From Candidatus Collierbacteria bacterium GW2011_GWC2_44_18 (lineage in GTDB: Bacteria > Patescibacteriota > Microgenomatia > UBA1400 > MFAQ01): DNA of 55,154 nucleotides. Of the stretch, positions 2,811 to 48,489 are shown one piece after another. The notes below the pieces were generated by a model that worked only from the letters and a program-made list of their open reading frames with translations, did no database searches and was not told the origin of the DNA. The stretch covers positions 2,531-57,684 of the forward strand of contig LCIE01000003.1 of the NCBI GenBank assembly GCA_001000865.1, read 5' to 3'. The stretch's first letter is position 1, and every line of letters starts with the position of its first letter. The position numbers and the translations under genes were made by a program.

Positions 2811-4391
2811 GGCGTGCCAGGTAAATATTTTCTCTTTGAGGAGACAGAGTTTTGCAAAATTACCAAGCCAGGCAACTGTCCGAGAAGGCATGTCCATATC
2901 CTCTTCGATGATGAGAAAAGTTAAGCCTAGAGAATCAGCATCTCTCTTGTTGGCCCAGATTTTATCTACATCCCGAATATATTCTGGCTGACCGGGTAAA
3001 TATGCCGTCTCGTATGGTTCATAACCGTATTTATGATTACCGTACCACCAGAAGAGATGGTTGTACGGAAAATCGTAAACAGAGGGTAGATAGCTATAGA
3101 CCTTAAACCCGTTGCCTTCAGCATTTTGGTAAACCCAATCAAGAGCCGCAATCTCGTTTTGCAAATTGCTCCGATCATCCGAAGGTTTCCCGGCCACGTC
3201 TCGAGTGTAGTCCCATTGAGACTTAAGGGAGTAATAAATCAACATACCCACAAGCAGGCCAATAAAAACCTTAACAATAATGGCCTTCCTTTCCCAAAGA
3301 TAATTCAAAAAGCATCCAAAAAACAACACAATTGGAATAGAGAGACCGAGAGTGTACCACTCCTTGAGCTTCTGAGGAAAAAGAAGATAAAACACGGCGG
3401 AGAATAAAATGAACCAAAAAGAAAGCGACCAAATTTTGATTTCCTCGAACTTTGATTTTTTAGCGGCGATAAAGATGTATAAAAATAGGGCTAGACTAAC
3501 AATAAATAAGTAGGGCACATAGTTTGGAGGCAAATGAGTAGAGCGAAGAATTAAGAGTTGAAAATGTTCCCAGCGCTGGATTAACTTTTCTGCAAAAGTT
3601 ATTTTCTCTCCAAGCATGGTGCCTTGTCCGGAAAATTCTCCCAAGAGAATCTTGGTCATTATAAAACCATGTTTGAATTCGAAAAGTACTTGGGGGAGTA
3701 GGGTGAGGCCGAAGCCACTAGTTAGGGGAATCAACCTCTTACGAGATGACGAGAAAAGAAGATAGAGAAAGGCGAAAGGAAAAAACAAAATCCCAAAAGC
3801 AGCTTCGATCTGCATGGAAATACCAGAGATGAGACCAAGTATGAACAATTTATATAGATTGCCACGCTTCGCTCGCAATGACATGGAAAGAGGTTGGTAC
3901 TTGGGAGGGGACAAAGCCCAGATGAGAGTCGCAAAATATAGGGTGGTGAAAAAAACCATTGAATTGGCGTTCCAGAAATATCTGGCGGTGTTAAAGCCTG
4001 TGGGCATTAAAAGTAATATGACAGAGACAATGAGAGCGAGTGAGGAGTGATTCTTCTTTAAGACATACCATAAAACGGTTACCGAAAGCTGATACCAGAG
4101 AATCTGCCAATAAACAAGGAATGAGGGATCTCCCCCTCCGGCAACAAAAGGAATTAGATTGAAATAATACCAGAATGGTCCCAGAAGGACACCATTGATA
4201 CTGGTAGTGGGTCCAACTAGGCGAGGGGTGTGAGTGACGACCATGTGGCGCATATCGACCATGTCTCGTCCCTGATCGGTAGTAAAGGGAAAATTATTGT
4301 AAGACACCTCCATGATTTTTAATACGGAGCTGGACAACAAAATGACCAGAAAAATAATCAAGGAGATGTTTTTCTTCAAAAGACTGAGCAT
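2778..4391 (-). CDS. GT-C (ArnT/PMT-like) polytopic membrane glycosyltransferase
   Basis: 537 aa and polytopic. The loop after TM1, TTDQGRDMVDMRHM...GPTTSINGVLLGPFWYY, is paralogous to FLGDEGRDVRIVRDL...GPQTSIGNMYLGPLYYY of 18281..19777. It carries hairpin repeat 3857..3882 in frame (SLRAKRGNL). Confidence 0.55.
   Translation of the reverse strand: MLSLLKKNISLIIFLVILLSSSVLKIMEVSYNNFPFTTDQGRDMVDMRHMVVTHTPRLVGPTTSINGVLLGPFWYYFNLIPFVAGGGDPSFLVYWQILWYQLSVTVLWYVLKKNHSSLALIVSVILLLMPTGFNTARYFWNANSMVFFTTLYFATLIWALSPPKYQPLSMSLRAKRGNLYKLFILGLISGISMQIEAAFGILFFPFAFLYLLFSSSRKRLIPLTSGFGLTLLPQVLFEFKHGFIMTKILLGEFSGQGTMLGEKITFAEKLIQRWEHFQLLILRSTHLPPNYVPYLFIVSLALFLYIFIAAKKSKFEEIKIWSLSFWFILFSAVFYLLFPQKLKEWYTLGLSIPIVLFFGCFLNYLWERKAIIVKVFIGLLVGMLIYYSLKSQWDYTRDVAGKPSDDRSNLQNEIAALDWVYQNAEGNGFKVYSYLPSVYDFPYNHLFWWYGNHKYGYEPYETAYLPGQPEYIRDVDKIWANKRDADSLGLTFLIIEEDMDMPSRTVAWLGNFAKLCLLKEKIFTWHASVRLMVPCPK
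3857..3882 (+). repeat. GCAATGAC-tagged hairpin repeat (GATTGCC...CGCAATGAC), inside a CDS
   Basis: gattgccacgcttcgctcgcaatgac, with the same TATAGATTGCC head as copies at 19785 and 48301. Confidence 0.7.
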
Positions 4392-7914: not shown

Positions 7915-8832
7915 TTATTTAAGGAGGCGACGCTGGAGCTTGAGGAAGAAGGCGTCTGTTTTGGTTTTGGAGTTTTGGATCTTGGAGGTAAGGAACCAGT
8001 AGCGGAATTCTTTGAATTTTTCCATGAAACCGGTTTGCCAGATGGGGGTAAACACTCTTTCATTGACCGGTTTACTTCCTTCCGCTTGCCAAACTTTTAG
8101 ATAAATAAGGAGTATAGAGAAAAACTGAAGCAGGGCAACAATCAGTCCATGAAGACCATCCCTGTAACCTTCACCGGCAAAGAAGCGAGACAAAAACTCA
8201 CCGGTGGGTTTCTTGATTAGATCGGCTGGATCGAATTTGTAGCCGGAGTTAATTAACTCTTTGGACTGCTGATTGGAGTATCGGAGTGCCCTGAGGAAAT
8301 ATTCGTCGATGGTACGATAATGGTGGTGTTCCAGAGCCAGACCCGTTTCTGCCTCCAGATTGACACCTGTGCCGTAAGTGATAGGCACCGAATGAATCTC
8401 GTCTTGCCATTCGACAGAACCTTTTTTGAAAAAGCGAACATTGTAGTCCGGCCACCAACGGGAGTGCTGCAGCCAATGTCCGAAGAGTAAGTTCTTCCTG
8501 GAAATGCGGACAAAATCAATTTCGTTTTGGTCGGCAATTTCAATTAATTTGGCGGCTAATGTTCTGGGCACGCGCTCGTCAGCGTCCACAATCAAGATCC
8601 ACTCCCCAAGAGCCTTCTTGATGGCAAAATTTCTAGCAGGCTCAACGTATCCAATAGCTTTGTGATCATAAATACGATCTGTAAACTGCTTGGCAATTTC
8701 TTTGGTATTGTCCATCGAGTCCATGTCAACAACGACGATCTCGTCACAGAAACTGAGAGACTTCAGGCAATCAAAAATGTTTTCCGATTCGTTTATGGTA
8801 TTAACAACCGCTGAAATTCTTATCTTGGCCAT
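7915..8832 (-). CDS. GT2-family glycosyltransferase
   Basis: ISAVVNTINESENI...VVVDMDSMDNT...VDADERVP (GT-A fold, DxD). Confidence 0.8.
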   Translation of the reverse strand: MAKIRISAVVNTINESENIFDCLKSLSFCDEIVVVDMDSMDNTKEIAKQFTDRIYDHKAIGYVEPARNFAIKKALGEWILIVDADERVPRTLAAKLIEIADQNEIDFVRISRKNLLFGHWLQHSRWWPDYNVRFFKKGSVEWQDEIHSVPITYGTGVNLEAETGLALEHHHYRTIDEYFLRALRYSNQQSKELINSGYKFDPADLIKKPTGEFLSRFFAGEGYRDGLHGLIVALLQFFSILLIYLKVWQAEGSKPVNERVFTPIWQTGFMEKFKEFRYWFLTSKIQNSKTKTDAFFLKLQRRLLK

Positions 8833-35826: not shown

Positions 35827-36993
35827 CTAGTCGCTCCGGTGTCTAAAATACAGGACACCTCCGGCAAGTGAGGATATGATGACCCCAAAAATAAAGGTGT
35901 ACTTCAGGACGGAGTTTGGAAGGCTGAGGGCGTGGTTGCTGGGTGGAAACTGAGATATCTGGATTGCCGCGTCGCTATCGCTCCCCTGCCTGCCGGCAGG
36001 CAGGTCGCCAATGACGACGCTAGAAATGGTGGAATCAGTGAAGATGCCGAGAATAGAAGAAGGAGAGGAAACTGATGGAGTGAGATTGCTTTGGTTAGGA
36101 GTACCTAATCGCGCAATGACGAGGGTGGGGGTGAGAGTTTTGAATGGAGTAGGAGTGGGTGTTTTAACGGTAGTTGGTGTTGGAGTTTGGATGGAGGATG
36201 TAGTGGAAACGGAAGTCGGGACCGGGCTAAATATCGGGCTTATCTCGTAATTTCCTCCCGGAGAAAAATTCCGCTGTTCGGACCACTCGGAGTAACCGGC
36301 CTTAATTAGCTTGGTAGTGTGCTCCCCCGGCCCACAAGGAACCAGCTTGTCGTTATCGCAAAAACATCCAGTACAAAACTCCAGAGTTTCACCGTCTTCG
36401 TGATGGGTATACAAATTGTCGATATAGATTTTTACTCCGGTAAGCAGTTGATTGTTTCCGTCTTTGGGCGGATTGATCTTGTAAATGGATTTTGCCGGAG
36501 TTGGAGATGGAGATTGAGTGAGAGTTGGTGTCTTGGTAGTGGGGGTAGCTGTTGGCGAAACCGTTGGGGTGGCGTCTAAGACCGAAACAGTGACAGGTGA
36601 AGAATCATAATTAGTTGCGATATCTGCCTTCCTGATTCTAACTTTGAATTCTTTTGAACCGGTGGCTGTAGCCGGATCGAAGCGACACTCTATGGTCGTC
36701 TGGGCATTGCCATCAGAGTCAGAAGTGAAACTCGGCATACTGGTCCAGTCGGCATTTTGCTGAAGCCAGCTAGAATTCCAAGTGTCTACCTCCGAAAAGG
36801 AATTACCACCCAATGCTTTCATAAAATATGATGAACTTAGGCTTAATCCAGAAATGTTGAAGGAGGGAGAGAATTTTTCTCCAGCTACTACTGATGGTGG
36901 AAATGAAGAAACAGTGACAACAGGTGTAGCCAAAACAACCAAGGGAAAATAGGCAAATAAAAAAAGAAACAACACGGGCAGGATTTGTTTCAC
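35827..36993 (-). CDS. secreted PT-rich surface protein with C-terminal TM anchor
   Basis: Signal peptide MKQILPVLFLFLFAYFPLVVLA, Pro/Thr linkers (TPTVSPTATPTTKTPTLTQSPSPTP), C-terminal FIFGVIISSLAGGVLYFRHRSD. Repeats 35961..36016 and 36082..36121 are read in frame. Confidence 0.65.
   Translation of the reverse strand: MKQILPVLFLFLFAYFPLVVLATPVVTVSSFPPSVVAGEKFSPSFNISGLSLSSSYFMKALGGNSFSEVDTWNSSWLQQNADWTSMPSFTSDSDGNAQTTIECRFDPATATGSKEFKVRIRKADIATNYDSSPVTVSVLDATPTVSPTATPTTKTPTLTQSPSPTPAKSIYKINPPKDGNNQLLTGVKIYIDNLYTHHEDGETLEFCTGCFCDNDKLVPCGPGEHTTKLIKAGYSEWSEQRNFSPGGNYEISPIFSPVPTSVSTTSSIQTPTPTTVKTPTPTPFKTLTPTLVIARLGTPNQSNLTPSVSSPSSILGIFTDSTISSVVIGDLPAGRQGSDSDAAIQISQFPPSNHALSLPNSVLKYTFIFGVIISSLAGGVLYFRHRSD
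35961..36016 (+). repeat. hairpin repeat with perfect 20-bp palindrome, inside a CDS
   Basis: GGATTGCCGCGTCGC...CCTGCCTGCCGGCAGGCAGG(35985..36004)TCGCCAATGACG. Confidence 0.85.
36082..36121 (+). repeat. hairpin repeat GAGATTGCTTTGGTTAGGAGTACCTAATCGCGCAATGACG, inside a CDS
   Basis: Similar to unit 22881..22920 (GGTTCGGAGTACCGAAACGCGCAATGACG). Confidence 0.75.
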
Positions 36994-37014: not shown

Positions 37015-37117
37015 GGATGGATCCCGGGTCAAGCCCGGGATGACGAGGTGGGATGGAATGAGATTTACCCCTTCGGGTATCAACGAGCCCCGGCTCGAGT
37101 ACGAGACTCGCAATGAC
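37015..37117 (+). repeat. two hairpin-repeat units (CCCGGG...GGGATGACG unit; GAGATTTACCCCTTCGGG unit), intergenic
   Basis: Second unit 37060..37117 is near-identical to 9352..9400. Track ORF 36994..37317 is largely these repeats translated. Confidence 0.85.
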
Positions 37118-37276
37118 AGGTGAGGGGTATATAAAGAAAAAGAACTCCTTGCGGAGCCTTTTTCCGATTTACTATTGCTAGTATCTCTGATCGAAAACTT
37201 GCGTTCTCGACTGTTTATAGTTATATCCCCTTGCAGGATACATGTCAAGAGGCAATTGTGCGTTTTGGCTCGTGAA

Positions 37277-37867
37277 CTAGAGCGATAAGAAACCAAAGTC
37301 TGTAAATTCCGGAGCAAGTTCCAAGTCGACTATCAGATATTGATCTTGATCACCAAAGTTGGTACAGAGAAGTGCCCTGGATAAGGGGAAAAGCTTTCTG
37401 CCAATATCAAACAGTACGTCCCCAGGAATATATTGATTTGTCATTTTGTACTTAAAAACATCTTCCCCTATCTTCATACCTTGATACGAATCTCCATCTA
37501 TTTTTTCTTCACCAGTATCGGAAATATCTAGATCGGAAGATGTGGACTTGAAATTAAAGACAACATCTTCCACCGGCGAATCATAGTCTAAGGTGAAAGC
37601 TCTTCCTTTTTCCTGTAAATAATCTATGAAAATCTGAGACACATCAGCTGTGATTCTAAACTGAATCCCCTCCATCCAGATTTTTTCTGGATTTTTAACA
37701 GTTCTACTATTCTGCAAAAAGACCTTCTCGTCCTCAATAATATTCCCTGAGATTTTCGACAATGTCGACTTTGGAAAAACTTCGCTGAATTCCTCAGAAG
37801 ATAATAGATTGGCTTTTTTGGCGAGAATAAAGAGATCCCCTGCCTGTTGTTTTACTTTTGGTTCCAT
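37277..37867 (-). CDS. hypothetical acidic protein (island gene 1)
   Basis: 196-aa ORF with no TM segments and no recognisable motif. It is divergent from the 37960 operon. Confidence 0.5.
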   Translation of the reverse strand: MEPKVKQQAGDLFILAKKANLLSSEEFSEVFPKSTLSKISGNIIEDEKVFLQNSRTVKNPEKIWMEGIQFRITADVSQIFIDYLQEKGRAFTLDYDSPVEDVVFNFKSTSSDLDISDTGEEKIDGDSYQGMKIGEDVFKYKMTNQYIPGDVLFDIGRKLFPLSRALLCTNFGDQDQYLIVDLELAPEFTDFGFLSL

Positions 37868-37959
37868 TTAGTAATTTTAGCATTCAAACTCAGGGGTGGT
37901 AGAATTCTTCCAGATCGTGAGGGCGGAACCTTGAAAATCTAAGCAATAAAGGAGGACTT

Positions 37960-38469
37960 ATGTCCCAAGCTTGTTGCAAAATTCCCAGTAACGAAGACGT
38001 TCAAGCAATAAATGAGTCTGTAAAAAAGAATTTTGCTGCAGAGAAACCAAAAGTATCACCTGCGTTAAATTCGTTTCAGGGAGATATTGGTGAAATGATT
38101 GCGGCACAAGTGGCAACAGAGCAACTTAACCTGAGACCGGAATTCTACGACTCACCGGGAAAATCTGAAAAGGGAATTGATCTTATTTATCGTGATGGAA
38201 GTGGAAAACTAGTTCTTATAGAAGCTAAGAATACCGAAAAAGGTGCAAGGGCATCCCCCACAACAACCAAAACATATGGACGTGAAGGATCCATTGAGTG
38301 GATTGAATATCACGCAAAGCTAATGTGTGATCCATCGTCGAGCAGATATTCACCAGACAATGCGAAATTAGGTGAAGAAATTCTTAGAGTTGGAGCCGCC
38401 AATGTGACTTTTTATATTATCCACACAAACCCGTCGACATTAAAAACAGATACCGTAAAAATTAGGTAG
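37960..38469 (+). CDS. small PD-(D/E)xK nuclease-fold protein with an MSQACCKIP... leader (island gene 2)
   Basis: AAGGAGG SD 6 nt upstream. GDIGEMIA (E45) ... KGIDLIYRD (D74) ... LVLIEAKNT (E88-x-K90) has the order and spacing of restriction-endonuclease-like (YraN/Hjc-type) cores. Confidence 0.6.
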   Translation: MSQACCKIPSNEDVQAINESVKKNFAAEKPKVSPALNSFQGDIGEMIAAQVATEQLNLRPEFYDSPGKSEKGIDLIYRDGSGKLVLIEAKNTEKGARASPTTTKTYGREGSIEWIEYHAKLMCDPSSSRYSPDNAKLGEEILRVGAANVTFYIIHTNPSTLKTDTVKIR

Positions 38470-38479
38470 AGGAGGATGT

Positions 38480-39634
38480 ATGCCATCTACAGAACAAGTG
38501 ATTAAGGGCTTGGAAGTTTTTGAGGCCCAAGTGAAAGCTTACGATGAGAAGTTTCGGAAAAAGAAGATCCTTCCCAAGAACCATGACTGGAGACCTTATC
38601 GCTGGTGTTCGAGGGATATTGTCTTTGCCCTGCTCGTGGTACAACAAAACCGTAAGGGAAATTATCTGGACGTCGATGTTTGCCTAATTGCTCAGCCACC
38701 CCAGTATATCGAAAACAGCGGTGCCAGAGTGGCTCTCGGATTTTTGCTTTCCGAAGCTTACAAATGTGGTGGCACAATGGAGCTGGTTTTTTCGAAAAAC
38801 ATCGAAGGTGGCCGAGTTCCTGCCTACATCTGCGACCTGGCAATTGAAATGGGGGTGAAGCTCAAACATGTTTTTGAGGGTCACATTACCCCGTTTGAAT
38901 CTCGCCAACTGTATCTTGGTTTGGCAGGATTTTCCAAAATGGCTCAAGAAAAGATAATGAAGATGGCGGTAGACAAGACCATTTCCTCGGAACGAGTTTG
39001 TTTTATGGTAATGGGTGGTGTTTGGTCTCTGCCGGAGGCCGAAACGATTATCTTAGGAAGTAAACACCCTGAAAGAGTTCTCCAATCGGCATCCGAACCG
39101 GACGAGCGACATCTGTATTTGAATGACTTGCTGGTAGCCAGTACCTCTATACTGGGTGGCGTTTTAGATCGCAAACTGCTCAGGACGGAACTAGTGGAAA
39201 ACGGGCAAATAGTGGAGTCCGAGGACGAAGAGTTTCCGCTAGTGATTGACTTCGACCCGGTGCACTTCGCCAAGATTTACAGGGCCGAAACCGACATGAT
39301 TGTGCCATGGATTGATGAAAATAAAATTTTGTTTTCCGGGCAGAAAATGGTGGTATTAATCCGCGCCAGATCCGACAGCGAAATTCAAAAGTATTTCCCG
39401 AAAGACCTGGAAAGTTTGAAGAAACTCATCGCCAAATATCGCAAAGACGCCCAAATCATGATTTTGTACTTACTTCCAAGAGATTTTGAGGATGTGTCTT
39501 TGACTACACAATCACAAATTATCGAACAGCTAAAGAAAGCGGGGGTGTACCTAATGATCTCACCGGAGAATATGGCCAGTCTAAACAAAGAAGCCATTCG
39601 TAGACTGGAAACCGGAAGGAGAACGCGCCAATGA
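38480..39634 (+). CDS. hypothetical 384-aa protein (island gene 3)
   Basis: GAGGAGG SD. It starts 10 nt after the upstream stop. No Walker A, no TM segments, no motif recognised. The C-terminal ~100 aa has an alternating beta/alpha pattern (VVLIRA...IMILYLLP...VYLMIS). Confidence 0.6.
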   Translation: MPSTEQVIKGLEVFEAQVKAYDEKFRKKKILPKNHDWRPYRWCSRDIVFALLVVQQNRKGNYLDVDVCLIAQPPQYIENSGARVALGFLLSEAYKCGGTMELVFSKNIEGGRVPAYICDLAIEMGVKLKHVFEGHITPFESRQLYLGLAGFSKMAQEKIMKMAVDKTISSERVCFMVMGGVWSLPEAETIILGSKHPERVLQSASEPDERHLYLNDLLVASTSILGGVLDRKLLRTELVENGQIVESEDEEFPLVIDFDPVHFAKIYRAETDMIVPWIDENKILFSGQKMVVLIRARSDSEIQKYFPKDLESLKKLIAKYRKDAQIMILYLLPRDFEDVSLTTQSQIIEQLKKAGVYLMISPENMASLNKEAIRRLETGRRTRQ

Positions 39635-40779
39635 TGAAAACTAATGTGATTTTAGTGTCTATCCCCGATGCCGATTGCATCGCCGACAGACTAGACCTGC
39701 GCGTCCTGATGGCACGGGCATTGAAAATTGAGGCGAGGATGGAGAAAGGGGTAAATTTGGAAGATGAACAACGCAGGTATCAAATTCTCTGCGACCGAAT
39801 GGAGTACCTGGGGAACCTGATTAGTGGCACAAAAAAAATAGAATCCGTGAATCTGGGAGATAACTATCTGGAATTACTGCTGCTGATGAAGAAAAAGTTT
39901 CCAGAAGAAACGAAACAGGCCGGAGTAATGTCTAACTTTTGTCCTGCTTCCTTCGTGGAAAAACAAATTGCCTTGTTCGAGGGCTTGGCTAAAAAGACAG
40001 GTTTACTCGAACATGAAGAGATCCAAAAGAAGATTAAGTTTTACCGAATGGCGGCGAAGCAAAACTGGAATGTCTTGGAACTTCAAGAATTGACAGCCGA
40101 TGAGGAAACAGATGGTAGCGTTTCCGTAGATAACCTCAGGGAGAAGTTTCTGTCATTGCCTATGAGTGACGGAATAACTTCAACACAAGACTCAAATTCA
40201 TTCATGGCCTTGCGAAACCAGATGAATCGAGTGATTGCCGAAGTGAATAAAGGTATTTCGACGGGGGTGAATTTTAGCGATTTGTCACATAACGTGATCA
40301 CTGAAATTCTGAACGAGTTTGTGTTTGGTGCCGGCAAACCTATGTACCTTCCGGTAGTTTATGCCGATGGCACGAAAGCCAGACCGTTTCCAATTCACTG
40401 CCTAAAACTACCTGAAAGGGGTAAAGTGATAAATCTTCCCGGACCGGTGATAAACGTGGGGCAGTTAAGTGGTAGACATCAGGAGATGGATCCGAAGATG
40501 AATATTTATTTCTTCCGGAACCAAGAGATCTCCACCGGGAAAACCGCGGCGGAAATTGACGGGGTGGCCTATCAAGAAGCGAAAAAGATCTTCGAAGGGC
40601 TTCGAAGGGAAGGGGTTTATCGAATTGCCTATTACCAAACTGGGTTCCAGCCGGCCGTGGTAGGCTTCTACCGGGCCCTCACTGAAGAACTACTGCTAAA
40701 AGGAAAAAGGGCACCGGTCTTGGAAGTGACACCTTACTACTTCTTTGGCCACTATGAGAAAGGTAAAACCTGGATCTAA
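39631..40779 (+). CDS. hypothetical 382-aa protein (island gene 4)
   Basis: ATGA start/stop overlap with gene 3. No recognisable motif. Followed by terminator 40793..40823. Confidence 0.6.
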   Translation: MMKTNVILVSIPDADCIADRLDLRVLMARALKIEARMEKGVNLEDEQRRYQILCDRMEYLGNLISGTKKIESVNLGDNYLELLLLMKKKFPEETKQAGVMSNFCPASFVEKQIALFEGLAKKTGLLEHEEIQKKIKFYRMAAKQNWNVLELQELTADEETDGSVSVDNLREKFLSLPMSDGITSTQDSNSFMALRNQMNRVIAEVNKGISTGVNFSDLSHNVITEILNEFVFGAGKPMYLPVVYADGTKARPFPIHCLKLPERGKVINLPGPVINVGQLSGRHQEMDPKMNIYFFRNQEISTGKTAAEIDGVAYQEAKKIFEGLRREGVYRIAYYQTGFQPAVVGFYRALTEELLLKGKRAPVLEVTPYYFFGHYEKGKTWI

Positions 40780-40792
40780 CCTATTTCAAACA

Positions 40793-40823
40793 CTGAGAGT
40801 GATTATTCACTCTCGGTTTTTTT
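40793..40823 (+). terminator. intrinsic terminator of the 37960-40779 operon (between convergent genes)
   Basis: CTGAGAGTG-attatt-CACTCTCGG stem-loop followed by T7. The hairpin overlaps the last codons of the minus-strand gene 40803..41204. Confidence 0.65.
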
Positions 40824-41204
40824 GTAAATATCGTGTTTATGGTAATAATCGTTGTCCAGTAAGTGTTTGTTTTCTTCAAAATATTTCTTTACTTCTAACA
40901 AAAATTTGTCAGTAGTGTCTGTGTCTTTGATGGCCAGGTGATACTCCATTTCTGAAATATCGTCGAGAAGCTGTCCCAGACCGGAATCAAAATGTAGATA
41001 GAAACTATAATTGTCGGCGTAATATATTCGGTTCGCTACGCCGGAAAGAACCTCGACACTAATTCTTTTCTTCAGAAAATCACTGATGGCACATAAAAAT
41101 ACATGCTTGGCATATTCAGAGTTCACTATTCTGACCGACCCATGAAAGCCCAAGTAATCGTCGATTTCTTCCGGGTCAAATGATATTTCGATTGTTTTGC
41201 TCAT
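40803..41204 (-). CDS. hypothetical acidic 133-aa protein (island gene 5; immunity-like position)
   Basis: ORF immediately downstream of, and co-oriented with, 41252..41641. No motif recognised. Confidence 0.5.
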   Translation of the reverse strand: MSKTIEISFDPEEIDDYLGFHGSVRIVNSEYAKHVFLCAISDFLKKRISVEVLSGVANRIYYADNYSFYLHFDSGLGQLLDDISEMEYHLAIKDTDTTDKFLLEVKKYFEENKHLLDNDYYHKHDIYKKTESE

Positions 41205-41251
41205 AAAAAAGACTAAGGCAATTTTACACCTTAGTCTGTGTTTTTTTGAAG

Positions 41252-41641
41252 CTATTTGTGACGATTTTTGCTTCCCTTTGAAACATTTTGGTTGGTTGAG
41301 TGGTCTCTGACGACTCGGCCACTACTGTTGACGGTATAAGAATGCCGGACATTGGTGGCGGTGTTGACCGTGGTGTAGTGAATACTACCGTCCTTTTCAT
41401 AGGTTTCAACCTGGATGACATCTCCAGGATTGTAAGGAGATATTTTTTGAACAGAACCATCTTGCTGTACCTTTGTTTGGCCTGAAGAAGGGGTTCCGGA
41501 GTTTTTGGCATCTTGGGTCTGTTCTTGAATATATTCTCGAATAGCTTCTTCGTCGGCGCGGATTTCTTGGTACTCCAGAATAGAGTCTCGAATGTGCTGA
41601 ACATCGTCAGGTGTCGGAATTTTTCCACAACATTGAGACAA
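41252..41641 (-). CDS. small protein with MSQCCGKIP... leader paralogous to the 37960 N-terminus (island gene 6)
   Basis: TTG start preceded by AAGGAGG. The first ~21 aa, MSQCCGKIPTPDDVQHIRDSI, align with MSQACCKIPSNEDVQAINESV. The C-terminal domain is unrelated. Confidence 0.55.
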   Translation of the reverse strand: MSQCCGKIPTPDDVQHIRDSILEYQEIRADEEAIREYIQEQTQDAKNSGTPSSGQTKVQQDGSVQKISPYNPGDVIQVETYEKDGSIHYTTVNTATNVRHSYTVNSSGRVVRDHSTNQNVSKGSKNRHK

Positions 41642-41710
41642 GAGAGCCTCCTTAAAGTGCGAATTTAAGCCATTGTACCATTTAACTTTTGGGAGTTTGA
41701 GCGTAAAATC

Positions 41711-41775
41711 GGACTAATCCTATTTAGGATGACACTGGAGTGAGATTGCCACAGCACTGCGTGCTTCACAATGAC
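41711..41775 (+). repeat. two short hairpin-repeat units in the divergent promoter region of the island
   Basis: GGACTAATCCTATTTAGGATGAC and GAGATTGCCACAGCACTGCGTGCTTCACAATGAC. Confidence 0.6.
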
Positions 41776-41814
41776 ATTCTATGAAGGAACTTTGAAAACT
41801 AAAAGGAGAAACAT

Positions 41815-44433
41815 ATGCCTAAAACGACAACAGAGTTTGAGGTGATGTGTAAACGTTGTAATACCGAAAAAATTGGCTATTCCGGCATGATGTACGAAAA
41901 AATGAAAGGGTATGGCCAATCCCGCCCTGAGTATTGTGAAAATTGCCGAAAAGCTCTTCTACTGGAAAAGATGACCATGGGAGCGGCCTATTTTTCGGTG
42001 AAGACTCTTCCTGGTGAGGATCTAACGATTGCTCTCCCGGGAGAACTAGGGATGGTTTACCACCCCCAGAGGCCACATGTGAAGGCAGAAAAAGCGACAA
42101 CTTTTGACGCCGGTAAGTTTGGAGCGACACCGGACAAAATCGTGGATGTGTATAAATGGTTAAAAGACAAGAACCACCAAGTAGCCATTATTATTGGCGA
42201 AACCGGATCCGGCAAATCGACAGCACTTCCCTATTGGCTCATTTATCCGCCGGTGGGTGTACCAAAAGATTTTTTCACCCGTGATGGCCAAATCCTGATT
42301 ACCCAACCGAGAATTGTGGCCACCACTTCGATTGCCAAGTATTTGGGCTCGCTTCTGGGATCTTCGGTGGGTAAGGGGTTTGATATTGGTTACAGATACA
42401 GTAAAGACCGGAACAATGACCGATTTAATGCCGCCTTTCTGGCTACTGACGGTAGCCTGATTAATATGATTATGAATGGCCAGCTGTCAGACCTGAGTGT
42501 GATTATGATTGATGAAGCACATGAACGATCGGAAAACATCGACATTATTCTCCGACTCCTAAAAGATCAACTACCTCTGTATCCACACCTGAAGCTCTTG
42601 ATTGTAAGTGCCACCATCAACAAAGAGTCTTTTCTTAAGTATTTTGGTGAGGACACGGCATCGGTGATTGAATTTGAAGCAAAAAGAAAATTCGAGTACA
42701 AAAAGGTCTTCGCTACCGAAAAAGAAAAATTGCCCTACGAAGATCTTCATAAACTGAGAGATTGTTTGGTGCCGGCACTCGTTGCAAAGGTTCTTTGGCT
42801 TTTGGATGAGCAGGTAGCCGGAAGAAAAACTCTCGAAGTCGTGATAGATAAAAGAAAGGTAAAAGCCAACACCCTTGCTTTCCTGCAAGGAGTGAAGCCG
42901 ATTGAGGAAGCAGTGAATGCGCTTACAAAGGCGATTGCGGCCAGTCCCACCCTGAGAAATAAGGTGGAAGTTTACCCGCTATATAGCGACTTGGAAGAAA
43001 AGAAAAAAGACTTGGCTCTGGAAGGGTCCGGCTCCGGAAAAATTCGCGTGATTATCTCTACCAATGTCGCCGAAGCATCGGTTACCGTGAAAGGCATTGT
43101 ATATGTGGTGGAAACCGGTGTGGAAAACCAGGCGAACTGGAAATCCGATACCTTACAGACAAAGGTGGGTTTGAATCTCATCAGCCAAGCAAACGCGAAA
43201 CAACGTTGGGGCCGCTCCGGCAGAACTGCTCCGGGTGAAGTTTATTGTCTTTACACCGAAGAACAGTTTAATAGGATGCTCCCCTTCCCCGTTCCGGCGA
43301 TTCAAAGATCGTCGATGGAAGACGTCATTCTGCTTTTGAAAAAGCTTGGGGTGGATGAACTCGATAGTGGGTGGATTGATAATCCGAATGGAACCGAGCT
43401 AACACGATCGATGGATTCGCTTCACAAAAGCGGGGCCATTGATGAAGATGACAGGCTGACTGAGTACGGCTCGATGCTGAAAGAGTTTGCATACACCGCT
43501 ACCCTCACCGACCTCATCATCATGTCCGATAGATTTGGATGTGCTGTAGAAGTGGCAACGATTTTGCCGGTAATTAAGAATGGAGGACACAAATATCTGT
43601 TGGCCAGAAATGATGAATGGGACAAGAAAGAACAGCAAAAAGCTAAAGCCGCTCATCAAATACTTTGGAAAAACTGTAAAGATGACGTGGAATTTATCCT
43701 GAAGCTGTATAGCTTATGGAGAGAACGCGGTGAGAAATGGGCCAAAGAATTTTACGTCAACCATGAAGTATTTAAAGATATTGAGGCGGAAAGAACACAG
43801 ATCTTACGTCTCTTGAATGGTCACAAAAAAGACAGCAACTTCCGGGCCATCGATTTTAAATTGGTAGATAGAACGCGAGTAATTTTAGCCTATTGTGTCC
43901 CTTTCACCGTGGTGCCCGAAGGGACTTACTCCTATAAAGCCAATCTCCAAACAGCGTCCGGCACCAGCGCCGCTTACCAGATGGTTCTGTCTGAAAAGAA
44001 GAAAAAGATTGTGGACGAAAATATTGCCAACACTCGATCCCTCTTTGCGCTGGCACGGGAATTGGTGGAGATAGCGAAGGATAGTGAAGCAGATGACGTG
44101 TACGCCAGGGTCTTTGCAGACGCCAACCTCACTTTGGAAGAAGCGATCAGCCTGCTCGAAGATGAACAGAAAGACAAGATCCTCAATACTTATGCTGTCG
44201 GACAAACTTTGGAAGCGAAAGTGACTGGCTTTGCCGATTATGGCACCTTCGTGAGACTGCCACTGGGAAACTCGGGAATGATCCATATCTCGAAGATGGG
44301 AAAGTGGGTGAAAAAGCCAAGCGAGATGCTGACCGTCGGTGACCTAGTCGAGGTGGAAGTGTTAGAAATGAAGGAGGAAAAAGAGAAGGTCCGGATAGGT
44401 TTGAAACTAAAGTCGGTGATTAAAAAGGCTTGA
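41815..44433 (+). CDS. DEAH/RHA-type SF2 helicase with N-terminal CxxC...CxxC Zn-ribbon-like region and C-terminal S1 domain
   Basis: CKRC..x25..CENC; GETGSGKST (I, nt 42196), TQPRIVA (Ia), DEAHERS (II, nt 42511), SATIN (III), TNVAEASVTVKGIVYVVETG (V), QRWGRSGRTAPGEVYCLYT (VI). HA2-like SLHKSGAIDEDDRLTEYG. S1-like GQTLEAKVTGFADYGTFVRLPLGNSGMIHISKM...VGDLVEVEVLEM...RIGLKLK. Confidence 0.85.
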   Translation: MPKTTTEFEVMCKRCNTEKIGYSGMMYEKMKGYGQSRPEYCENCRKALLLEKMTMGAAYFSVKTLPGEDLTIALPGELGMVYHPQRPHVKAEKATTFDAGKFGATPDKIVDVYKWLKDKNHQVAIIIGETGSGKSTALPYWLIYPPVGVPKDFFTRDGQILITQPRIVATTSIAKYLGSLLGSSVGKGFDIGYRYSKDRNNDRFNAAFLATDGSLINMIMNGQLSDLSVIMIDEAHERSENIDIILRLLKDQLPLYPHLKLLIVSATINKESFLKYFGEDTASVIEFEAKRKFEYKKVFATEKEKLPYEDLHKLRDCLVPALVAKVLWLLDEQVAGRKTLEVVIDKRKVKANTLAFLQGVKPIEEAVNALTKAIAASPTLRNKVEVYPLYSDLEEKKKDLALEGSGSGKIRVIISTNVAEASVTVKGIVYVVETGVENQANWKSDTLQTKVGLNLISQANAKQRWGRSGRTAPGEVYCLYTEEQFNRMLPFPVPAIQRSSMEDVILLLKKLGVDELDSGWIDNPNGTELTRSMDSLHKSGAIDEDDRLTEYGSMLKEFAYTATLTDLIIMSDRFGCAVEVATILPVIKNGGHKYLLARNDEWDKKEQQKAKAAHQILWKNCKDDVEFILKLYSLWRERGEKWAKEFYVNHEVFKDIEAERTQILRLLNGHKKDSNFRAIDFKLVDRTRVILAYCVPFTVVPEGTYSYKANLQTASGTSAAYQMVLSEKKKKIVDENIANTRSLFALARELVEIAKDSEADDVYARVFADANLTLEEAISLLEDEQKDKILNTYAVGQTLEAKVTGFADYGTFVRLPLGNSGMIHISKMGKWVKKPSEMLTVGDLVEVEVLEMKEEKEKVRIGLKLKSVIKKA

Positions 44434-44457
44434 CAATGGGAGATCTTGGCTTATAAT
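44430..44457 (+). promoter_or_regulatory. sigma70-type promoter (TTGACA-16 nt-TATAAT)
   Basis: Perfect -35 TTGACA (44430..44435, overlapping the helicase TGA stop) and perfect -10 TATAAT (44452..44457). Confidence 0.55.
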
Positions 44458-44463
44458 ACAAGA

Positions 44464-44742
44464 TTGGTAAAAGGCGGTCTGGGCATAGGGCATTTTGGTC
44501 TATATAGAGTTCGGGTTTCCCGACCTCCAGTGCCTAGCCTTGTTCCCGGAATTTGCTTTAGTGCCGGTGCGACTCCGTGCCCGGGTTTTAAGCCCGATTC
44601 CACCTTCCGGTGGGAGAAGTTGACAAAGAAGTACCGCGTTTGAACCGTATTACCGACTGGTTCAAAAAGGTGCCCTCCACTGGGGGGTGAACTTCTGAAG
44701 TCAGCTATTGAGCCTCTTGTGAAAACGAGAGGCTTATTTTTT
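44464..44742 (+). ncRNA. candidate structured ncRNA of unknown class (~280 nt)
   Basis: Bounded by the consensus promoter and an intrinsic terminator, with no plausible CDS. It is locally GC-rich and has several clean hairpins: GAGuuCGGGuuuCCCGacCUC, CCGGUGCG-acuc-CGUGcCCGG, CCACC-uucc-GGUGG, UUUGAACC-12nt-GGUUCAAA. Confidence 0.45.
44711..44742 (+). terminator. intrinsic terminator
   Basis: AGCCTCTTG-tgaaaa-CGAGAGGCT stem-loop followed by TATTTTTT. It lies 5 nt from the stop of the convergent M23 gene. Confidence 0.7.
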
Positions 44743-44746
44743 GGGC

Positions 44747-46782: not shown

Positions 46783-47570
46783 TTAGATTTTATTTTACGG
46801 TTCGTAGTGTGAGACCCGCCTGCCGGACGGGCAGGTTGCTTCGGCTCGGGTACGAGACTCGCAATGACGGGGGTGGAGGGAGGCTTTCCCTCCTTGCCGG
46901 CGGGCAGGCCGTCCACATCTGAAACTATCTTACCCTTTTCCAGGTGAATGTTGCGATCCGGATTCAGGCCGATCAGAGTGACATCGTGAGTAGCCAGGAT
47001 AACCGTGGTACCGTCATCGTTGATTTTTTTGAGGAGATTAAAGATTTCAATGGAAGTGTCTTTGTCGAGGTTTCCTGTGGGTTCATCGGCAAAAAGAATA
47101 GCCGGTTCGCAAGCGATGGCTCGGGCAATAGCGGCTCGCTGAACTTCTCCACCGGATAGTTGACCTGGAAATAAGTACTCCTTCCCAGGTATGCCAACCA
47201 TTTTGAGTAATTCTGTAATCTTTTCCTGAATTTTTTTTCGATTGTATCCGCCAATCTCCAGAGCGATGGTGATATTCTCACCGATGGTTTTATCCGGAAT
47301 TATTTTGTAATCTTGAAAAACAAAACCCACTTTACGCCGAATAATGGGGATGTATTTTGGCTTTATTTGATTTAAATCCTCCCCGTCAATGACAATTTTA
47401 CCTTTAGTGGGTAGAAGATCCCGGATCAGAAGACGGCCGAGAGTGGTTTTTCCGGCTCCAGACTTGCCAGTGATTATGACAAATTCACCGGGTGAGACTG
47501 AAAAATTTACATCATCGAGGACGATATCACCATTGGGATATGACTTGGTGATGTGAGAAAAATCAATCAA
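46779..47570 (-). CDS. ftsE: cell-division ABC ATPase FtsE with a repeat-derived C-terminal extension
   Basis: GKSGAGKTTL (Walker A), LSGGEVQRAAIARA (signature), [11 protein letters not shown] (Walker B). The last ~45 aa (DGLPAGKEGKPPSTPVIASLVPEPKQPARPAGGSHTTNRKIKSK) are translated hairpin repeats 46807..46910. Confidence 0.85.
   Translation of the reverse strand: MIDFSHITKSYPNGDIVLDDVNFSVSPGEFVIITGKSGAGKTTLGRLLIRDLLPTKGKIVIDGEDLNQIKPKYIPIIRRKVGFVFQDYKIIPDKTIGENITIALEIGGYNRKKIQEKITELLKMVGIPGKEYLFPGQLSGGEVQRAAIARAIACEPAILFADEPTGNLDKDTSIEIFNLLKKINDDGTTVILATHDVTLIGLNPDRNIHLEKGKIVSDVDGLPAGKEGKPPSTPVIASLVPEPKQPARPAGGSHTTNRKIKSK
46807..46910 (+). repeat. hairpin-repeat units forming the 3' end of ftsE
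   Basis: GTGTGAGACCCGCCTGCCGGACGGGCAGGTTGCTTCGGCTCGGGTACGAGACTCGCAATGACG plus a second GC-rich hairpin (CCTTGCCGGCGGGCAGG). Confidence 0.8.
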
Positions 47571-48300: not shown

Positions 48301-48489
48301 GATTGCCGTGGAGTTCGGGCGGACGCGGGGGTCCGCCCCTACACGCAATGACGGGTGGAGGAGGGATTGCTTCGGCTCGGGTACGAGACTCGCAATGACG
48401 GGTGGAGGAGGGATTGCTTCGGCTCGGGTACGAGACTCGCAATGACGGGTGGGGTGAGACTTTACTGTCGGTAGATAGGTTGCAATGAC
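48301..48489 (+). repeat. head-to-tail array of four hairpin-repeat units, including an exact 47-bp tandem duplication
   Basis: Units 48301..48353, 48354..48400, 48401..48447 (identical to the previous unit: GGTGGAGGAGGGATTGCTTCGGCTCGGGTACGAGACTCGCAATGACG) and 48448..48489. Each ends in GCAATGAC. Confidence 0.9.

Follow-up and report, generated by a model that had tools for sequence, protein, structure and literature searches.

What kind of system is encoded by an island of seven open reading frames (ORFs), most of whose products belong to no recognisable family, in the genome of Candidatus Collierbacteria bacterium GW2011_GWC2_44_18, a bacterium of the Candidate Phyla Radiation (CPR)? The island lies in the 55,154-nucleotide stretch of contig LCIE01000003.1 that was analysed here (the window). 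It encodes a nuclease-like protein of 169 residues (the product of gene 1), two proteins of 384 and 382 residues (A1 and A2), a DEAH helicase of 872 residues and three small proteins of 196, 129 (p129) and 133 (p133) residues. An initial annotation, made from the sequence alone, had proposed that these genes, together with an adjacent RNA, form an undescribed conflict system. Our analysis leads us to propose, at a probability of roughly 0.55, that the island is a horizontally acquired, minimal CPR version of a widespread and unnamed four-component conflict system, most likely one that is directed against phages or other mobile elements and has an abortive outcome. This proposal builds on what we observed of the gene content of the island, the strict linkage of its core genes, the identity of their domains, the fusions between them, the status of the island as an indel and the polymorphism of its effectors.

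The core of the island recurs far outside Collierbacteria. A1 has 118 homologues, with 430 clusters at 50% identity recovered in a profile search of 1.84 billion representatives, and A2 has 98. We collected the DNA around these homologues from NCBI, ENA, JGI and Logan assemblies, from GTDB species representatives and from PLSDB plasmids, and annotated the loci with hidden Markov models, anchoring the sampling on A1 and obtaining 42 distinct A1 genes. Where the locus could be assessed, A1 was adjoined by A2 in 37 of 39 cases, and in 36 of 37 a gene closely related to that of the helicase came after them, always in the same orientation; A1, A2 and the helicase therefore form a contiguous, co-oriented core. 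As labelled, the hosts belong to about nine phyla: Patescibacteria (Collierbacteria, Saccharibacteria and Shapirobacteria loci, plus an A2 homologue named as from Woesebacteria), Chloroflexota, Desulfobacterota, Planctomycetota, Verrucomicrobiota, Acidobacteriota, Bacteroidota, Pseudomonadota and Actinomycetota. The actinomycetotal copies sit on two plasmids, the conjugative plasmid pB of Paenarthrobacter ureafaciens strain AT and a linear plasmid of Streptomyces sp. NBC_00637, where the genes are annotated as ‘hypothetical protein’, ‘S1 RNA-binding domain-containing protein’ and ‘helicase-related protein’. The cassette is rare, with 33 loci found by a pattern scan of 185,579 species representatives and only two copies among 72,556 plasmids. 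Because the block is conserved across phyla while its flanks are unrelated from copy to copy, chance juxtaposition can be excluded, and the question raised by the initial annotation, whether these genes co-occur as a block, can be answered with about 40 linked loci in many phyla.

The flanks were surveyed through 119 proteins from 24 loci. They include PD-T4-6-like kinases, mad6/8, RAMPs, caspase-domain proteins, integrases, resolvases and a C5-methylase. One copy lies near a NERD-kinase, a methylase and HEPN_Swt1, another near TraC and a relaxase, and the copy on plasmid pB near MobC, a relaxase and an RHS toxin gene.

Within Collierbacteria, the presence of the cassette was surveyed by anchoring on the neighbouring FtsX gene, which retrieved 64 syntenic loci. 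About 30 of these, long enough to judge, have the order PrfB-p181-FtsE-FtsX-M23-...-VanZ-TsaE without the cassette. The only carriers are the window, L069 (from the same genome as L001 and L024), L064 and L088. Even the nearest relatives (L048-L051, with FtsX 96% identical) are free of the island. When the window was compared with L048, L051 and L052 by blastn, homology ended at about 37254 and restarted at the promoter of the adjacent RNA, and it is from these two breaks that the limits of the island are drawn (Table 1); in the nearest island-free relatives, about 35 nt take its place. At the island ends we saw no flanking direct repeats or att sites. On a point that the initial annotation had proposed to check, the block is missing from syntenic relatives, as a whole and from some 30 loci, making it an indel of the type that genome-reduced CPR bacteria gain and lose.

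The effectors are the part of the cassette that varies. Almost all loci have, immediately before A1, a gene for a protein of 110-390 residues whose N-terminus is conserved over about 20 residues and follows the pattern M-[G/A/SQx]-C-x4-[T/S]-x2-[D/E], then x3-[I/L/M]. This leader starts M-G-C or M-A-C (M-S-Q-C-C in CPR), with an invariant cysteine 3-5 residues from the N-terminus, after which we propose that it forms a capped helix. The initial annotation had noticed paired leaders on small proteins of the island, and the 169-residue and 129-residue proteins do share 12 of 21 leader residues; across the 55-kb window, a regular expression for the leader matches exactly these two ORFs, both inside the island. 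The leader turns out to be a key conserved feature of the cassette, as does the nuclease-plus-helicase grammar on which the initial annotation had drawn. Behind it, C-termini are swapped from locus to locus, so that the family has the defining layout of polymorphic toxins, a variable C-terminus on a conserved N-terminal module.

The C-terminus of gene 1 in the window, which is PD-(D/E)xK-like, is common to CPR, some Chloroflexota, Proteobacteria and Streptomyces. In an alignment of 12 sequences from several phyla, the residues D74, E88 and K90 never vary and E45 is kept in at least 90%, which bears out the E..D..ExK nuclease core seen at the outset; as judged from its sequence, the gene 1 product carries the conserved E...D...(D/E)xK signature of PD-(D/E)xK nucleases. 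When a gene 1 profile was run against the PDB, the best match was Cas4 (4ic1), aligned exactly on the D..ExK motif at an E-value of 0.2, and its matches in Pfam all fell below threshold (UPF0102 at 0.0035, the restriction endonuclease (REase)-type NOV_C, NERD, REase-ARP and a number of unrelated families). What stands in the same position at other loci is a DUF2380/SHH-type HNH domain (E 9e-9), Endonuclea_NS_2, a weak Mrr-like domain, transmembrane-like segments or repeats. The second leader protein of the window, p129, is encoded between A2 and the helicase, at a position whose content varies among CPR loci. In L002, L011, L012 and L014 this position, on the same strand, is taken by leader genes whose C-termini are of at least three kinds, sometimes followed by an acidic protein like p133. 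As a side observation, the leader gene 1 of the Paenarthrobacter ureafaciens pB copy (NZ_CP094491; L043, ~8040-8560, plus strand; product beginning MACGNNH) is absent from the RefSeq annotation: its ORF overlaps the start of A1, and RefSeq annotates a 73-residue ORF on the opposite strand instead.

Families known from toxin immunity accompany these effectors. Outside CPR, A1 is 520-670 residues long because it bears an additional N-terminal domain, either SUKH (PF14567, PF09346 or PF14568) or TsiV (PF11876), the latter described by Pfam as ‘Type VI immunity for VRR-NUC’. In most non-CPR loci an immunity-type domain thus stands, as part of A1, directly after the toxin gene. The CPR copies of A1 are without SUKH or TsiV, and a divergently transcribed gene of the 196-residue type is present instead; its homologues occupy the same position in all CPR loci that reach upstream of the operon (L001, L002, L010-L015, L024 and L042). 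Seven of the nine members of this family match DUF6630 (PF20335), the best at an E-value of 8.6e-11; the window protein by itself scores 14 bits, below threshold. This is the sole Pfam match among the six non-helicase proteins of the window, none of which gave a significant match in scans of Pfam, NCBIfam, PADLOC and PHROGs. The initial description of the island as a set of unrecognisable genes is therefore right for most of them, with the exception of the 196-residue protein, which belongs to DUF6630. We consider this CPR-specific accessory protein a candidate stand-alone neutraliser, that is, an immunity protein, of the nuclease effector. In the same way, p133 is a candidate cognate immunity protein of p129: a p133 homologue follows a p129-like gene in L014, and in L064 a tblastn match lies beside a p129-like gene. 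As first claimed, both the 196-residue and the 133-residue proteins are acidic (computed isoelectric points of 4.45 and 4.97).

Turning to A1, AlphaFold 2 gave a model with a mean confidence (pLDDT) of 92, for which Foldseek searches of the PDB and BFVD returned no match with an E-value below 0.01. Weak, partial matches to GNAT folds nevertheless recur in both libraries (probability up to 0.99, template modelling (TM) score up to 0.55, E at least 0.02), and these probably reflect a C-terminal beta-rich domain of the model. The loop equivalent to the canonical Q/RxxGxG/A of GNAT proteins reads R295-A-R297-S in A1, without the glycines. Pfam assigned no family to the window A1, and no GNAT, CARF or SAVED domain to it or to ten divergent proteins of the A1 family; a sequence-profile search of the PDB matched the SUKH part only. 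An N-terminal alpha-beta-beta-beta-alpha-beta unit is strongly conserved in A1, and its invariant residues include C43, C96, C174, D66 and E92. BLASTP and hhalign indicated no paralogy between A1 and A2, and hhalign no similarity between A1 and the REase domain of gene 1. Parts of the cassette are, however, found fused to one another: the leader to A1 (P0101/P0232, P0273 and P0328), and A1 to A2 in seven representatives (P0257, P0258, P0261, P0268, P0270, P0324 and P0351). In a further variant the first ~100 residues of A1 give way to a Gly-zipper/NB-ARC module of the STAND type, and A2 and a helicase come next. These fusions suggest that the parts of the cassette are physically coupled, and A1 is probably the adaptor that binds the effector leader.

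For A2, AlphaFold 2 predicted two domains (pLDDT 86). The top Foldseek matches in the PDB are mostly SAVED or CARF proteins (Cap5, SAVED-CHAT, Cam1, Csm6, Cap4 and CalpL), all of them weak, with E-values of 0.012-1 and TM scores of about 0.27, so that here too no match reached an E-value below 0.01. A Pfam scan of 61 A2 members gave nothing consistent and no GNAT, CARF or SAVED domain, and a sequence-profile search of the PDB with A2 gave no match. The C-terminal domain of A2 is also found alone, beside an S1 protein.

The helicase is the one component of the island with clear relatives. The initial description of a DEAH helicase with an S1 C-terminus is supported by matches to the Pfam families DEAD, Helicase_C and S1, and a CxxC...CxxC motif can be read in the Zn-ribbon-like N-terminus that it had also named. 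The motifs GETGSGKS, DEAH, SAT and QRWGRSGR are all intact, and on its motifs and core the protein is a bona fide member of the DEAH/RHA group of superfamily 2 (SF2). When the protein was searched against the PDB with phmmer, its residues 120-695 aligned to Prp22/DHX8, Prp43 and Prp16 at E-values of 1e-59 to 1e-63, and the bacterial helicases HrpA (1e-46) and HrpB (1e-33) were matched more weakly than these eukaryotic spliceosomal DEAH helicases. This difference may bear on the origin of DHX-type helicases. Homologues outside CPR are mostly 1,470-2,170 residues long, with a treble-clef Zn finger (zf_Tbcl), up to two S1 and up to four KH domains; the helicase of the window is a minimal version of the helicases in most of the complete non-CPR loci. 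We rejected an assignment as an HrpA or HrpB equivalog, since the protein scores 226 bits against a cut-off of 722 for TIGR01967 and 197 against 546 for TIGR01970, and its gene is missing from about 30 syntenic relatives. A type I CRISPR-Cas system was likewise rejected: Cas3 models match the generic helicase core only (E about 1e-5), no cas genes are neighbours, and the window has neither a repeat array nor an Rfam CRISPR-DR match.

On the three points at which the initial annotation had seen its proposal as vulnerable, its unassigned proteins matched no housekeeping family, its genes are linked in other genomes, and the helicase is sporadic and accessory, not a universal core gene; the reading as an undescribed conflict system has withstood all three.

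How might such a system work? The components would be an effector with a leader and a swappable ‘warhead’, A1, A2, and a DEAH/RHA helicase, expected to move 3'->5' on RNA, with a Zn-ribbon and S1 domains (elsewhere also KH domains). A1 and A2 would form an adaptor that sits on the helicase, and A1 would hold the effector by its leader. The toxin would be kept silent by an immunity-type domain, which outside CPR would be the SUKH or TsiV domain of A1. In the window, this part would probably be played by the stand-alone DUF6630 protein and, for the second effector, by the acidic 133-residue protein. On meeting foreign or aberrant RNA, the helicase would remodel the assembly at the expense of ATP, and the effector would be released or activated. 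If this is correct, a single sensor core can be joined in trans by unrelated toxins (REase, HNH and NS_2 nucleases, membrane peptides) by virtue of a Cys leader of about 20 residues, a principle from which further effectors, and the immunity partners that go with them, might be predicted. Bacterial immunity would then also include a DEAH/RHA RNA helicase that carries S1/KH arrays, a point of relevance to how the eukaryotic DHX RNA sensors arose. Since two cultured hosts, Paenarthrobacter ureafaciens strain AT and Streptomyces sp. NBC_00637, carry the cassette on plasmids, the hypothesis is directly testable.

Other explanations of the same genes have to be weighed against this proposal. A conserved N-terminus that bears a variable toxin at its C-terminal side, with a gene for SUKH or TsiV directly behind, is the classical layout of inter-bacterial polymorphic toxin-immunity cassettes, in which case the leader would be a novel trafficking or export signal, the small proteins would be exported toxins, SUKH, TsiV, DUF6630 and p133 would confer self-immunity, and A1, A2 and the helicase would serve the handling, export or regulation of the toxin. 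Domains typical of polymorphic toxins are indeed present (Endonuclea_NS_2 and DUF2380/SHH-type), the pB copy has its RHS toxin gene nearby, and the window holds a second pair of toxin and acidic protein. We nevertheless think this unlikely. Pfam scans of the cassette proteins revealed no signal peptide or known trafficking domain (PAAR, LXG, TPS, RHS and the like), and no secretion genes are conserved beside the cassette in the loci examined. One and the same leader is used in monoderm, diderm and CPR hosts, although these have no dedicated export route in common; an obligately linked cytoplasmic S1/KH RNA helicase of 870-2,170 residues has no part in known toxin export; and the variants fused to NB-ARC point instead to intracellular immune signalling. 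Alternatively, the cassette could be a selfish module of mobile elements (for addiction, anti-defence or exclusion), whose toxin and neutraliser stabilise the element while helicase and adaptor regulate them through RNA. Such a role would suit the copy beside MobC and a relaxase on a conjugative plasmid, the copy on the linear Streptomyces plasmid, the TraC-like and relaxase neighbours, the integrases, resolvases and transposase in the flanks, and the clean indel behaviour in Collierbacteria. It is made improbable by the window and most of the loci from metagenome-assembled genomes (MAGs), which have no recognisable mobility genes within ±9 kb, by the lack of repeats flanking the island, by the cost that some 5-12 kb of DNA encoding a large ATPase would mean for simple addiction, and by the swappable effector on a conserved sensor-like core, an arrangement typical of immune systems. 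The line between such a module and defence is in part a matter of words, as mobile elements carry many defence systems.

The weak structural matches raise a further alternative, a second-messenger or modification pathway in which A2 is a receptor of the SAVED/CARF type and A1 a GNAT-like transferase acting, by acylation or another modification, on the N-terminal Cys or Gly of the effector. The toxin would then be governed by that modification or by the binding of a ligand, and not just by being sequestered. The predominance of SAVED/CARF proteins among the top matches of A2, the recurrence of GNAT folds for A1 in two independent libraries, and the three invariant cysteines of A1 all fit this idea, and the invariant leader Cys has a parallel in bacterial gasdermins, whose Cys3/Cys4 is palmitoylated (bioRxiv 10.1101/2021.06.07.447441). 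All the fold matches are weak, however (E 0.01-1, TM 0.14-0.55), the Pfam families GNAT, CARF and SAVED are absent from the 61 A2 members, the window A1 and the ten divergent A1-family proteins, the GNAT loop is replaced in A1, and the cassette encodes no cyclase or other signal-generating enzyme, all of which makes this pathway distinctly unlikely. An extension of the idea, to which we likewise give only an outside chance, would be a new immune machine, in which an RNA-sensing DEAH/RHA helicase controls interchangeable toxins through covalent or metal chemistry on the Cys leader, with A2 as a SAVED/CARF-like receptor; the GNAT-like domain of A1 could carry out S-acylation or make a thioester, or the leader could form a Zn clasp together with the three invariant cysteines of A1. 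Were this true, the cassette would be a leader-peptide ‘plug-in’ system and a possible prokaryotic antecedent of DHX-type RNA sensors. That the island is housekeeping RNA metabolism or chance, an HrpA-like core helicase next to unrelated hypothetical genes, might be argued from the matches of the helicase to HrpA/HrpB models and from the wealth of unannotated genes in CPR genomes, but this is effectively refuted by scores far below the equivalog cut-offs, by the rarity of the block and its absence from most syntenic relatives, by a gene order kept across phyla and by the fusion of its components.

The proposal of an anti-phage or anti-mobile-element system, in turn, has several points against it. 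From linkage and domain content we infer the formation of a complex, the toxicity of the effectors and their neutralisation, RNA as the trigger, and the defence role itself. The window A1 is without SUKH or TsiV, hhalign finds no relationship between DUF6630 and SUKH, and the arguments for the neutraliser roles of the DUF6630 protein and p133 are where they are encoded, how acidic they are and that they co-occur with the cassette in a lineage-specific way. Neither A1 nor A2 has a robust relative in sequence or structure, so that the GNAT-like and SAVED/CARF-like folds of the models are to be taken as leads only. Many of the flanking genes are housekeeping genes, and the association with defence and mobile elements is descriptive, not statistical. 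Searches for A1 homologues in phage and IMG/VR collections came back empty, and no well-studied organism was seen to have a copy within a classical, dense defence island. In L114 (1780-4182), an A1-A2 fusion adjoins a transposase and is without a helicase. Because sampling was anchored on A1, it bears only incidentally, through L045 and L114, on the converse question of whether this helicase clade also occurs without A1 and A2.

Two unusual loci and a set of labels deserve mention in their own right. At L045 (8001-11791), the C-terminal domain of A2 occurs alone, as a protein of 216 residues, with a 1037-residue S1 protein that has no helicase Pfam match, beside HEAT-repeat proteins. At L112 (374-7012), a Gly-zipper/NB-ARC module forms a single protein with the C-terminal part of A1, and the genes for A2 and a helicase of 834 residues come next. 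L010, L011, L014 and L015 are MAG records from the third-party annotation section of ENA that are titled ‘uncultured Pseudomonadales bacterium’, yet all four have a CPR-type cassette, and L010 shares the gene neighbourhood of the window on the FtsX side; these labels are probably wrong.

The features of the island and its surroundings are collected in Table 1. All seven ORFs lie at the positions and on the strands given by the initial annotation, and its reading of the expression signals was largely accurate. Genes 1 and A1 are separated by 10 nt, and A2 is translationally coupled to A1, as their genes overlap at ATGA. AGGAGG-type Shine-Dalgarno sites precede the genes for the 169-residue and 384-residue proteins, the helicase and the 129-residue protein (AAGGAGG in the last case, ahead of its TTG start). 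The three-gene operon does have a terminator-like hairpin of its own, and a second such hairpin (41237-41210, minus strand) follows the minus-strand gene pair. Of the hairpin clusters that had been described, the one at the left edge amounts to two small hairpins and no more; none was found in the internal divergent region (41642-41814).

Table 1. Features of the island and the adjacent RNA gene, in window coordinates.
Feature	Position	Strand	Remarks
Accessory island (indel) holding the whole cassette	~37256-44426		~7.2 kb; limits from blastn against relatives
196-residue acidic DUF6630-domain protein	37277-37867	-	divergent from the three-gene operon
Gene 1, 169-residue effector: Cys leader (residues 1-21, MSQACCKIPSNEDVQAINESV) and PD-(D/E)xK-type nuclease-like domain	37960-38469	+
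A1, 384-residue core protein, no known family	38480-39634	+
A2, 382-residue two-domain core protein, no known family	39631-40779	+	ATGA overlap with A1
Intrinsic-terminator-like hairpin closing the three-gene operon	40792-40817	+	11-bp stem, then T-run
133-residue acidic protein (p133), downstream of the second leader protein	40803-41204	-
129-residue second leader-bearing protein (p129; MSQCCGKIPTPDDVQHIRDSI), TTG start	41252-41641	-	different small C-terminal domain
872-residue DEAH/RHA RNA helicase: N-terminal CxxC..CxxC Zn-ribbon, one C-terminal S1	41815-44433	+
Structured small RNA, ~280 nt	44430-44745	+	consensus sigma-70 promoter, intrinsic terminator

The RNA next to the helicase was the one element of the initial proposal that had to be given up as part of the system. 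The RNA itself was described accurately: a perfect promoter (TTGACA-16-TATAAT, 44430-44457) overlaps the helicase stop codon, a terminator lies at 44709-44736, and the ~280-nt transcript is predicted to be structured (folding z = -5.4 against shuffled sequences). A complete small RNA (sRNA) with the same promoter and terminator is, however, kept in relatives that are free of the island, and wherever nhmmer and blastn searches located it beside the helicase, the context was the FtsX-syntenic one; cassette copies in other places are without it. Since it is kept without the island and is missing from cassettes in other contexts, the sRNA is a resident of the genomic backbone. It is conserved in Collierbacteria with or without the island, with a nearly invariant 3' half and a 5' half that has diverged with compensatory changes. 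Rfam 15 gave no match at gathering thresholds in the window (a spurious match between 44300 and 44900 had E = 7.9), and by ARAGORN the sRNA is neither a tRNA nor a tmRNA.

Two further observations concern the surroundings of the insertion site. The island is bordered by a gene for a predicted Thr/Pro-rich surface protein of 388 residues (35827-36993, minus strand), whose counterpart in L048 (~2760-3908) is of about 380-535 residues; its length and N-terminal domain vary strongly among close relatives, making this a second hypervariable spot beside the insertion site. The window also contains a perfect 47-nt tandem repeat in 2.3 copies (48344-48452), with related intergenic copies of 30-45 nt at 37091-37119, 46833-46868 and 3848-3882 that relatives have too; these look like REP-like (repetitive extragenic palindromic) intergenic elements.

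How does the cassette compare with systems already described? Bacterial gasdermins have a Cys 3-4 residues from the N-terminus that is palmitoylated, which stabilises their inactive state (bioRxiv 10.1101/2021.06.07.447441). The likeness to the leader lies in the position of this Cys, by analogy, with no relationship in sequence or fold, and the cassette effectors are mainly nucleases, not pore formers. With HrpA/HrpB, Prp22/DHX8 and Prp43/DHX15 the cassette helicase has in common a core of RecA1, RecA2, winged-helix and ratchet domains and the motifs GETGSGKS, DEAH and QRxGRxGR; it differs from them in its N-terminal Zn-ribbon, its C-terminal S1 (KH) arrays and its sporadic distribution, bound to the cassette. 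Polymorphic toxin-immunity systems resemble the cassette in their swappable toxins on a conserved N-terminal module, in a SUKH or TsiV domain that outside CPR is encoded by the next gene and in an overlapping toxin repertoire. In the cassette, by contrast, the N-terminal module is only about 20 residues long and resembles none of the known trafficking domains, there is no linked secretion system, and the immunity-type domain, which the window copy does not have, is fused to A1, itself tied to A2 and an RNA helicase.

The closest parallels in architecture are found among defence systems that join a helicase to a nuclease. In Hachiman, the PD-(D/E)xK nuclease HamA is paired with the SF2 helicase HamB, which is likely to act as sensor or motor, with the nuclease inactive until triggered. 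The cassette likewise links a helicase obligately to an effector with a putative restriction-endonuclease fold, and we would expect a similar trigger logic. We rejected membership in Hachiman, as no Ham model of PADLOC matches any window protein, the helicase matching only Cas3 (E about 1e-5) and, weakly, PtuA. The cassette helicase is of the DEAH/RHA type with S1/KH domains, not of the HamB type, and the cassette adds an obligatory A1 and A2, a separate, swappable effector with a Cys leader, and SUKH/TsiV domains. Mokosh also pairs an RNA helicase with a nuclease: it consists of MkoA, an Upf1-like RNA helicase of superfamily 1 (SF1), with or without a kinase, and a phospholipase D (PLD) nuclease, for which recognition of phage RNA has been proposed (bioRxiv 10.1101/2022.05.11.491447). 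This candidate was rejected too, since there is no match to an Mko model, the helicase is an SF2 DEAH protein and not SF1 COG1112, and there is no PLD domain. The nucleases of the cassette are of the PD-(D/E)xK, HNH or NS_2 type, and Mokosh has neither A1 and A2 nor a leader or immunity domains. As far as sequence can tell, no component of the cassette is homologous to a part of Hachiman or Mokosh. A PADLOC scan of all seven proteins assigned none of them to a named system, in agreement with the initial annotation, which had found no such match from motifs. We found no description of the cassette in the open-access full-text literature either; PADLOC-DB dates from 2023, so that a very recent naming is possible. 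The cassette is apparently unnamed, a proposed conflict system of the helicase-nuclease type that is built from undescribed families, and, if it does act in conflict, it adds to the known systems one that spans many phyla and has at its centre A1 and A2, which belong to no described family.

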